Shown in pieces: positions 36,828-42,139 of a stretch of DNA of 49,459 bases. Below the pieces are notes generated by a model that worked only from the letters and a program-made list of their open reading frames with translations, did no database searches and was not told the origin of the DNA. Position numbers and translations under genes: made by a program. Every line of letters begins with the position of its first letter. Position 1 is the stretch's first letter. This stretch comes from Aeromonadales bacterium (GTDB lineage: Bacteria > Pseudomonadota > Gammaproteobacteria > Enterobacterales > Succinivibrionaceae): the NCBI GenBank assembly GCA_012519775.1, contig JAAYPN010000068.1, positions 1 through 49,459 on the forward strand. Reading direction: 5' to 3'.

Positions 36828-36844
36828 CAGAATTTGTTTTCAAA

Positions 36845-37216
36845 GTGAGCCGACCTATAAGCCGAGTTCTGTTCTGCAATGCAGTGGCAACCATTCCTCT
36901 AGGCTAGCAATCGCTCGCTAGCTCCAGCAATCAACCCGCTCTTACTTCGGACCAAAGTATAAAGAGCCTATTTGATCTTGCTCCAGGTGGAGTTTACCAT
37001 GCCTTTTTTATTGCTAAAAAAGCGGTGAGCTCTTACCTCGCCTTTTCACCCTTACCATAAATGGCGGTTTACTTTCTGTTGCACTTGTCATGGGCTTGCG
37101 CCCTCCAGGCGTTACCTGGCACCTTGTCCTGCGGAGCTCGGACTTTCCTCCCCCGTGACCGTATGCTTAAAAAGCTCAAACACGCGTACACGGCAGCGGT
37201 TGCCTGGTCGACTCGC
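36845..37216 (-). ncRNA. rnpB: RNase P RNA (bacterial type A)
   Basis: GAGGAAAGTCCG and ACAGAACTCGGCTTA conserved regions, GGTAAACTCCACC, paired ends GAGTCGACC / GGTCGGCTC. Confidence 0.96.
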
Positions 37217-40263: not shown

Positions 40264-40767
40264 TTAATCTTTTACAAATTCAAAGCCTGGCTCTGATGGT
40301 ACCTCAGGAGCTTTTTCTGTCTTAAGAGAGCTTTGCTCGGAAGATTGTTCTGATGATGAGGAATTATCCTCAACCTCAAACTCTGGAGAGAAATCATCAT
40401 TGATATCATCGATAAGATCTTCAGCAGGAGCAAGTTCAAGCTGCTCTAGAGCCTTTCCAATTGGGAATGAAGTTCCTGTCTCTAAAGCGATTAGATCTTC
40501 CATTGCTAGATATGGAATATAAATGTCCTGACTTACACCTTTAAATCTTGCTTTAAAGGAAATACCTGATTTAAGACACTTATAATCAAAGATTGCTGCA
40601 GGCTTTAAGCTTAGGATAATACTGCCGTCTTTTATGAATTCTTGAGGAACAATTACACCAGGAAAATTAGCATCCACCAGGATATGTGGAGTAATTTCAT
40701 TGTCTACCATCCAATCATAGTATGCAGTAAATAAAAATGGCTTGGTGCTGGATAATTTATCTTTCAT
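40264..40767 (-). CDS. sspB: ClpXP adaptor SspB
   Basis: KPFLFTAYYDWMVDNEITPHILVDA, F.ARFKG, A.E.G; acidic tail; RBS GAGGAG. Confidence 0.88.
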   Translation of the reverse strand: MKDKLSSTKPFLFTAYYDWMVDNEITPHILVDANFPGVIVPQEFIKDGSIILSLKPAAIFDYKCLKSGISFKARFKGVSQDIYIPYLAMEDLIALETGTSFPIGKALEQLELAPAEDLIDDINDDFSPEFEVEDNSSSSEQSSEQSSLKTEKAPEVPSEPGFEFVKD

Positions 40768-40786
40768 GGTTTTCTCCTCTTAGCTC

Positions 40787-40814
40787 ATTATAGCAAAGAA
40801 AAATGTGGAGTTAA
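40787..40814 (-). promoter_or_regulatory. Promoter candidate for sspB
   Basis: TTAACT-N16-TATAAT with extended -10 TGC, downstream of the intron 3' end. Confidence 0.55.
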
Positions 40815-40834
40815 TTATGACGAGTTCACAGGTA

Positions 40835-41242
40835 ATCGAGTATAGGGAAAGATTAACTCTCACTCCTCTGACAACACCGTACGTGTCGTTCGGTCCTTCA
40901 CGCTTAGTCTTCGCTACTACGACCTCGGCTGACTTCTTGCCATTCGTTGTTACTACGGTTTTACCGCTGACAAGAACTCCTCAGGTAAGGGCATTTTCTT
41001 TCACTCCATATATCCGCCATCTTTACAAAGTATGTTCCGTCTAACTATTGGACTTTGACTTATTTAGCAGCCTTATCCACATATTATGCCTAAGATGATT
41101 TCTGTTCGTCGGACCAGAGTTTTGCTATCCGCTTCTTTTGGCTACCATGTCACCATGACCACCTTGCGGTTTCGCTAAGTCTTCCCGTTAGCGGGCAACT
41201 TCGGGACTCACACCCTATAGATAATGCTCATGCTGAGCACAC
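40835..41242 (-). mobile_element. ORF-less, internally deleted group IIC intron
   Basis: 5' end GTGTGCTCAGCATGAGC...CTATAGGGTGTGAGTCCCGAA; domain I motifs CGCAAGG, GAAGCGGA, CTTACCTGAGGAG; AAGTCAGCCGAGGTCGTAGTA...GAAGGACCGAAC (domain III); CGTACGGTGTTGTCAGAGG (3' part of domain V); ends TACTCGAT; lies directly after the rpsI terminator. Confidence 0.9.
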
Positions 41243-41244
41243 AT

Positions 41245-41273
41245 AAAAAACCCCTGCATGGAGCAGAGGTTTT
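41245..41273 (-). terminator. rplM-rpsI terminator (intron target site)
   Basis: AAAACCTCTGC-TCCAT-GCAGGGG-TTTTTT, then AT and the intron's GTGTGC. Confidence 0.85.
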
Positions 41274-41305
41274 GATAAGAAAAACAAAATGAATTGTTTT
41301 CTGTA

Positions 41306-41698
41306 TTAACGCTTTGAGTACTGTGGACGCTTACGAGCTTTGTGAAGACCAACCTTCTTACGCTCTACAGCACGAGCATCACGAGTTACGAAGCCAGCCT
41401 TACGTAAAGCTGAACGGAATGACTCGTCATACTGAATTAAAGCTCTAGTAATACCGTGACGGATTGCACCAGCCTGACCAGTGATACCACCACCTGAAAC
41501 AGTTATGTAAAGATCAAACTTGTCTGATACTTCTAATAACTCTAGAGGTTGAGCTACAACCATACGAGATGTAGGACGACCAAAGTATTGCTCTAGGCTC
41601 TTGCCATTGATCTCTAATTTACCAGTACCCTGCTTTAAGAATACACGTGCAGTTGAGTCCTTACGACGACCGGTACCATAATACTGATTTACAGCCAT
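41306..41698 (-). CDS. rpsI: 30S ribosomal protein S9
   Basis: [36 protein letters not shown]. Confidence 0.98.
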
Positions 41699-41710: not shown

Positions 41711-42139
41711 TTAAAACTTGATAACCTGAGGCTGTTGAGCAGCATGATTATGTGACTCACCAGCATATACCTTTAGCTTACGGAACATAGCACGACCTAA
41801 TGGTCCCTTTGGAAGCATGCCGCGAACAGCTTTTTCAATAACATCCTCAGGCTTACGTGCTAAAAGTTTCTCGAAAGACTCTGACTTAATGCCGCCTGGG
41901 AAACCAGTGTGGTGATAATACATCTTATCAGTAGCCTTGTTACCAGTAACTTTAACTTTAGAAGCGTTGATTACGATAATGTAATCACCAGTATCTAAGA
42001 ATGGAGTGTACTCTGGCTTGTGCTTACCGCGTAAACGCAAAGCAATTTCAGTAGCTAGGCGACCTAAAGTCTGACCCTCAGCATCAATAACTAACCAATC
42101 ACGCTTAATTGTTGATGGTGTTGCAACATAAGTTTTCAT
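41711..42139 (-). CDS. rplM: 50S ribosomal protein L13
   Basis: [35 protein letters not shown]. Confidence 0.98.

Follow-up and report, generated by a model that had tools for sequence, protein, structure and literature searches.

Class C group II introns of bacteria are expected to insert behind terminators (PMC1702495, PMC3522654), and the closest described systems to the element reported here, B.h.I1 of Bacillus halodurans, GsI-IIC and the 7uim intron, combine terminator insertion with a 4-nt EBS1-IBS1 pairing and GUGYG/AY ends, per the account in PMC1702495. The active site of group II introns resides in domain V, which carries an AGC or CGC triad, and truncated or inactive is the state in which most bacterial copies are described (PMC4424553). 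Class C intron fragments have been described in Enterobacteriales, among them So.gl.I1 in Sodalis and others (PMC3522654).

Here we describe a 408-nt internally deleted group IIC intron in the window (the whole stretch of DNA that was analysed, 49,459 nucleotides). It shares terminator insertion and GUGYG/AY ends with the three introns named first, and its parent element resembles them in a 4-nt EBS1-IBS1 pairing, its length of ~1.9 kb, its RT of ~430 aa and a domain V with a CGC triad and a GAAC loop; unlike them, the relic has lost the triad strand of domain V together with domain IV and the RT gene and would be nonfunctional. Like the So.gl.I1 fragments (PMC3522654) and FRE652 of Sinorhizobium (PMC4181065), it is an inactive intergenic remnant which holds the 5' part of the ribozyme at a conserved transcribed locus. 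Unlike those remnants, as far as the accounts in these sources go, it keeps both ends and has suffered an internal deletion rather than a 3' loss, and it has many close counterparts in its own genome; unlike FRE652, as portrayed in PMC4181065, it is not shared between species. With ORF-less introns that are helped in trans, such as C.te.I1, it has in common the missing ORF and the presence of related RT-encoding introns in the genome, whereas those introns, in the description of PMC4424553, keep a complete domain V. A description of the relic itself was not found in literature searches, although the fragment lists in the papers' supplements could include relatives.

Position, boundaries and neighbours of the relic

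The sequence as read places the relic at 41242-40835 on the minus strand (408 nt), with a 5' GTGTGC and a 3' CTCGAT, which agrees with the element and ends given in an earlier note on this DNA. The ends are identical to those of 12 (5') and 11 (3') other copies with differing flanks. The features of the locus are as follows.

40835..41242, minus strand: group IIC intron relic with an internal deletion (408 nt, 5' GTGTG ... CTCGAT 3')
40888..41242, minus strand: 5' segment, domains I-III, nt 1-355 (RF02001, RF01998 and parent alignment)
40888..40893, minus strand: microhomology CCGAAC, 6 nt, at the deletion joint (present twice in the full intron)
40835..40893, minus strand: 3' segment, domain V loop and 3' strand with a destabilised domain VI (folding; no RF00029 match)
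41063..41066, minus strand: putative EBS1 TAAA (covariation register; the majority family allele here is ATTA)
41023..41023, minus strand: candidate EBS3 (A), complementary to the T at 40834 with which the 3' exon begins (predicted)
41243..41246, minus strand: 5' exon end TTAT (pairing count with EBS1)
41247..41273, minus strand: intrinsic-terminator-like hairpin of rplM-rpsI, the insertion target (folding)
41306..41698, minus strand: rpsI, ribosomal protein S9 (PF00380)
41711..42139, minus strand: rplM, ribosomal protein L13 (PF00572)
40264..40767, minus strand: sspB, the gene downstream of the relic (PF04386)
40787..40814, minus strand: sigma-70-like promoter candidate for sspB (10/12, extended -10; consensus match only)

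The domain I-III motifs that the earlier note had recognised were borne out using Rfam, in which RF02001 matched at 41159-40990 with 127.4 bits (gathering 32, E 5.7e-26) and RF01998 at 40957-40893 with 44.9 bits against a gathering value of 35. The placement behind the rplM-rpsI terminator holds as well: an 11-bp hairpin with a T tail at 41273-41247 closes rplM-rpsI (z -6.7, 200 shuffles), and the relic begins right behind it. Nor is there an RT ORF, as had been noted, for a tblastn search with the family RT against 40701-41400 retrieved nothing, not even an RT remnant, at E 10.

The relic thus carries the ancestry features of group IIC (domain I-III, terminator adjacency, GUGYG/AY boundaries and a class C RT in its parent), and it descends from a group IIC intron that likely retrohomed behind the rplM-rpsI terminator. 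In its own genome (G000), all 13 of 13 intron 5' ends are preceded by a hairpin 0-7 nt away (z -3.8 to -9.0), T is the base behind 12 of 12 intron 3' ends, and congeners have empty alleles, so that the earlier claim of a IIC origin and a true retrohoming event is supported and the intron-less alleles that it suggested looking for are found.

Between the 3' end of the relic and sspB lie 68 nt. The candidate sspB promoter falls outside the relic, in the 3' exon, in a scan that returned 11 sites in total against 9.4 expected in shuffles; within the relic the promoter scan found no promoter-like site, including any that the private 3' changes might have made. The predicted fold of the whole 408 nt is no better than that of shuffled sequences (z -1.32, with 13 of 100 shuffles as good). 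A 79-aa plus-strand ORF at 40805-41044 has no Pfam match, runs antisense to the intron and was set aside as a chance ORF.

Two further observations concern the neighbourhood. An ordinary RNase P class A RNA lies at 36842-37215 on the minus strand (323 bits in Rfam). In enteric bacteria, sspA usually stands between rpsI and sspB; in the window (40264-41698), sspB follows rpsI without sspA between them, as it does in the congeners with short spacers.

A deletion between two CCGAAC hexamers

Relative to a complete intron of ~1.93 kb, the relic consists of nt 1-353 and the last ~59 nt (1870-1927), and the ~1.52 kb that are missing comprise the entire ORF with the rest of domain IV as well as the 5' strand of domain V. 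The hexamer CCGAAC occurs in the full intron at 348, after domain III, and at 1870, in the domain V tetraloop, and a single time in the relic. All 11 of the other 3' ends carry GAAACGCCGTATG ahead of the hexamer, and their full domain V helix folds; at the place of GAAACGCCGTATG the relic carries a domain III strand, the CGC triad strand of domain V being deleted. RF00029 (domain V/VI), which matches the 11 other 3' ends of G000, the complete congener copy described below and sequences in 15 of 43 congeners, did not match at the relic in a 2.2-kb search even with E up to 10; the intact ends to which the earlier note drew attention do not, therefore, amount to an intact ribozyme. Domain VI of the relic is predicted at -6.7 kcal/mol, versus -18.2 to -23.9 in all 11 other copies, and their fold was not recovered.

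Of the features of a functional ribozyme, the relic is missing a domain V with an AGC/CGC triad and bulge and a domain VI helix with a bulged A, and of those of a mobile retroelement it is missing an RT/maturase ORF in domain IV. Domain IV is the region to which the RT binds. With the triad lost from domain V, established chemistry implies that the relic would be unable to splice or reverse-splice, even with an RT supplied in trans.

The joint was also followed in sequencing runs. Two of the four runs (X12 and X14) bridge it at flank depth with over 31 letters to either side, and runs X2 and X7 contain it with 24 letters past the hexamer, likewise at flank depth; run X2 is identical to the window, which may have come from that sample. 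The joint region carries private letters that are absent from the family; further private letters of the relic lie at 41140, 41028 and 40976. Run contigs have loose ends at 40888 and 40893, and no contig examined spans the whole relic.

The two segments on either side of the joint are unequally preserved. Domains I-III are nearly undamaged, scoring 127.4 bits versus 130.9 for an intact congener copy, and the 5' segment shows 12 differences in 355 nt from the same-species multicopy family, of which 9 also occur in other members of the family and 3 are private. Divergence is higher in the 3' remnant, at 6 of 53 versus 12 of 355 (Fisher p 0.02, a crude test), and domain VI is variable among the other copies too (mean 2.3 differences, maximum 5). 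A near-intact 5' part with a diverged 3' part, in a relic that seems fixed in its species, could reflect an insertion of recent date, a chimera or gene conversion, with small room for selection on the 5' part.

The parent element and its resident family

Per BLAST, G000 (1.72 Mb in 159 contigs) contains, besides those of the relic, 12 5' ends and 11 3' ends of the intron, and all of these additional ends sit near contig ends. Contig ends with intron sequence belong to C11, C13, C14, C43, C51, C66, C71, C103, C109, C112, C114 and C128 in one set and to C25, C28, C29, C45, C46, C51, C58, C77, C82, C100 and C125 in a second. A recent burst has left at least 12 near-identical IIC copies in this 1.7-Mb genome; they break the assembly, and the full element is missing from it. 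Three of the 3' ends in G000 carry the RT C-terminus, with 80-84% identity. Searches with the Pfam families GIIM and RVT_1 returned no intron RT in the G000 assembly, a result that does not imply absence, as the middle of the repeat is unassembled.

A complete parent copy was found in the congener G024. It is 1927 nt long, with an ORF at 514-1827 that encodes a 437-aa RT with a YADD motif, and this RT passes TIGR04416 with 406 bits versus a cut-off of 300. The solved structures closest to it are 7uim and the GsI-IIC RT 6ar1, and by similarity ranking the parent RT is class C-like. The 5' segment of the relic is 89% identical to nt 1-353 of the 1927-nt intron. In run X17, a 2770-nt contig contains both intron ends, 1524 nt apart. 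Relative to the sspB flank, contigs of the family are ~13-19x as deep in four runs of DNA or likely DNA, which stem from four studies, depth not being equal to copy number.

Among plasmids, the best RT hits are those of Clostridium, which are 44% identical. At this value the Clostridium plasmid RTs are too distant for a recent import from Firmicutes, and the source of the relic is, as far as sequence comparison tells, an intron family resident in the genus. The Firmicutes-type import that the earlier note thought probable is not needed, the nearest source being the organism's own multicopy family.

Other copies have met with insertions of their own. One intron copy is directly flanked at its 3' end by an unrelated sequence (G000:C28:1-130, found again on C123 and C59), probably another mobile element that inserted in it. 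In the complete genome G003, two intron copies lie within 9 kb of one another (L045, G003:C1:778000-787000), one of them split by an insert of ~1.35 kb, and at least one G003 intron copy has a broken RT frame.

Target recognition and the register of EBS1

The register of EBS1 was examined by pairing counts over 20 copies from 12 congeners. With EBS1 set to the four loop nucleotides directly behind TGC, 66 of 80 pairs are Watson-Crick, or 41 of 48 if one copy is counted per genome (12 genomes), versus 25-31 of 80, or 15-20 of 48, in four other registers; in these counts kin are not independent, and copies missed by the search pattern are uncounted. As covariation favours the register right after TGC, we assign the putative EBS1 of the relic to TAAA at 41066-41063 and not to ATAA. 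The ATAA at 41063-41060 that had been put forward as EBS1 is indeed present and complementary to TTAT, but it lies 3 nt out of register, and its register gives 19 of 48 pairs. A candidate EBS3 has one covarying case, G with C in G010.

Against its own exon end, TTAT, the relic's EBS1 forms 2 of 4 pairs, the majority allele ATTA forms 3 of 4, and with the exon end shifted by one base the relic's EBS1 pairs at 4 of 4. Either the loop was altered after insertion, or the intron inserted after TTTA and the 5' joint gained one T, an extra base with which the sequence of the two closest empty alleles, ...TTTTA-TATC, is compatible.

Almost every congener has an EBS1 loop of its own, which covaries with the exon end (L011-L021, L035, L041-L049). 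Within G000 there are two target classes, namely 8 sites, mostly NAAT (also TAGT and GATT), that fit EBS1 ATTA, and 4 sites ending in NTTA that fit TAAA, the relic's allele, at 3-4 of 4, while ATTA fits them at 0-1 of 4; the loops of the four copies at NTTA sites are not readable from the assembly. A third, minor allele of the EBS1 loop occurs in run X2.

Distribution of the relic and of similar deletions

We located rpsI in 39 of 43 congeners and dropped 3 with under 100 nt downstream, which left 36 informative genomes with at least 140 nt after rpsI, and these were searched with a profile built without the window copy. No intron match follows rpsI in 35 of the 36, including the two closest by S9 identity (98.5%). 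The sole match is in G008 (E 8.8e-10). sspB lies within the fetched stretch in 25 of the 36, with spacers of 85-135 nt in 9 of these.

The same-site remnant in G008 is decayed, being 64% identical to the window copy over 153 nt and 69% to the full copy over 117 nt, with a GC content of 32% and no Rfam match there; its breakpoints are not placeable by global alignment. It is likely an independent, older insertion at a favoured site. An insertion shared with G008 was considered and appears unlikely, as the remnant is 64-69% like the family versus ~97% for the relic, and the closest congeners are empty.

A search for the joint itself that allowed up to 2 mismatches found 1 copy in G000 and none in the 43 congeners. 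In genome and metagenome collections, which may omit records of very near genomes, the same-joint pattern was retrieved from 4 GTDB genomes and 3 metagenomes; a profile search found domain I-III upstream of none of the 7, Rfam found nothing in the 4 GTDB-genome matches, and we regard them as chance matches, having no intron features beside them. The search for further copies of this junction that the earlier note proposed thus yielded no intron-linked copy in the genome or the collections.

Within the species, all 4 runs of DNA or likely DNA, which date from 2016-2024 and belong to 4 studies, show the 3' part of the relic connected to sspB. An intron-free joint is listed in none of these runs, whose contigs drop rare variants. 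The relic seems to be fixed in the species. The earlier note would have called a single, strain-specific, untranscribed copy an ordinary fossil; the copy is single, but it is apparently species-wide rather than strain-specific.

Three other short relics, with different breakpoints, were found in G008 and G028; internal deletion is a recurring fate of the family, and the joint of the present relic has not spread. In G008:C50 (L097), the decayed remnant lies 55-400 nt after rpsI, behind its terminator, and a second, internally deleted relic lies just after sspB, 1167-1641 nt after rpsI. A relic of ~420 nt in G028 (L019, G028:C5:10545-10970) has kept domain I and domain V/VI (46.1 bits, over the Rfam cut-off) and lost domains III-IV, with a short duplication in the domain V loop. 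At a contig end in G008 (L053, G008:C104) there is an ORF-less copy with a domain IV of ~240 nt and point changes in domain V. The rpsI-sspB spacer measures 810-1877 nt in three congeners (L061, L064, L090), which suggests a general insertion hot spot in this spacer.

Contigs from RNA runs

The RNA evidence consists of the assembled contigs of 4 out of 6 RNA runs. Among the pieces listed for these runs, no contig joint skips 40835-41242. Their rplM-rpsI contigs end at 41271, 41304, 41277 and 41310, before or at the terminator, and DNA contigs extend to 41214-41215; the RNA contig stops do not fall at one place and prove nothing. Among the pieces listed, two are identical to the window inside the relic or at its edge, a 61-nt contig of run X17 (depth 4.6) and a contig of run X16 covering 40578-40856 (depth 2.9), and both may stem from DNA carry-over or from another copy. 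Intron-family contigs are present in all 4 RNA runs.

Discussion

We read the relic as the joined ends of the organism's own multicopy IIC intron, a dead and immobile fossil that arose through retrohoming followed by a microhomology-guided deletion, and we would put the probability of this reading at roughly 0.88. A full element of ~1.93 kb would have retrohomed behind the rplM-rpsI terminator, and after insertion DNA slippage or recombination at CCGAAC would have deleted ~1.52 kb; alternatively, the deletion could have come about by a template jump of the RT during insertion. Lying between the terminator and the sspB promoter, the relic would persist at low cost.

The unequal divergence of the two segments could also be explained by a chimera, in which a newer copy inserted at the same terminator in front of an older, decayed one and recombination joined the post-domain III hexamer of the newer copy to the domain V hexamer of the older, or in which gene conversion refreshed the 5' part. 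The site is a repeated target, as the remnant in G008 shows, and the poor fit of the relic's EBS1 to its own exon end (2 of 4) would follow from such a history. However, the numbers are small and no part of the family varies more than domain VI, the EBS1 misfit is also explained by insertion after TTTA plus one extra T, and a tandem allele was not seen; we consider a chimeric origin possible but unlikely. That the joint is an artefact, a collapsed repeat mis-joined at the hexamer, has in its favour that other copies do break the assembly at contig ends and that the relic is nowhere spanned whole by an examined contig, but a joint present in 4 of 4 runs at flank depth, bridged on both sides in X12 and X14 and carrying its own private letters makes this barely credible.

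A function for the element would have to take one of two forms. Read-through from rplM-rpsI might give a stable, domesticated RNA, or the insert might act in cis by insulating or tuning sspB, and the near-intact domains I-III, the apparent fixation in the species and the precedent of FRE652, a long-kept remnant for which a cis-regulatory role is only hypothesised (PMC4181065), could be taken to point this way. Yet a same-site remnant exists in 1 of 36 congeners only, and in a decayed state, the promoter-like site of sspB lies outside the relic and none lies inside, and youth alone accounts for the intact 5' part, so that domestication strikes us as quite improbable. A functional non-autonomous mini-intron, spliced or mobilised in trans by the RT of full-length copies, would agree with the two kept ends, with the helper copies in the genome and with the observation that ORF-less bacterial introns nearly always accompany related RT-encoding introns (PMC4424553); but no RT supplied in trans could make up for a domain V that has lost its triad strand, domain IV is gone, domain VI is destabilised and the joint is single-copy, and we give this explanation next to no weight. 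The earlier note's proposal of a domesticated or non-autonomous miniature is accordingly not supported, given a deleted domain V catalytic strand and a single-copy joint found in none of 43 congeners. Very doubtful, too, is the notion that the relic serves as a silent store of target specificity, with its TAAA loop on a near-undamaged domain I-III scaffold; if it were true, EBS1 loops would be exchanged between active copies and such relics through gene conversion, and the family would escape target saturation.

As a fossil, the relic is of little import, broken copies being the usual state of bacterial group II introns. We would like to note, nevertheless, that a hexamer-to-hexamer deletion can mimic a tidy miniature with perfect ends yet without an active site, and that ORF-less, miniature-like introns need a check of domain V. 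The parent family, for its part, presents natural covariation between EBS1 and target across 12 genomes and, within a single genome, two classes of target, and this covariation set is useful for studying how IIC introns change their target sites.
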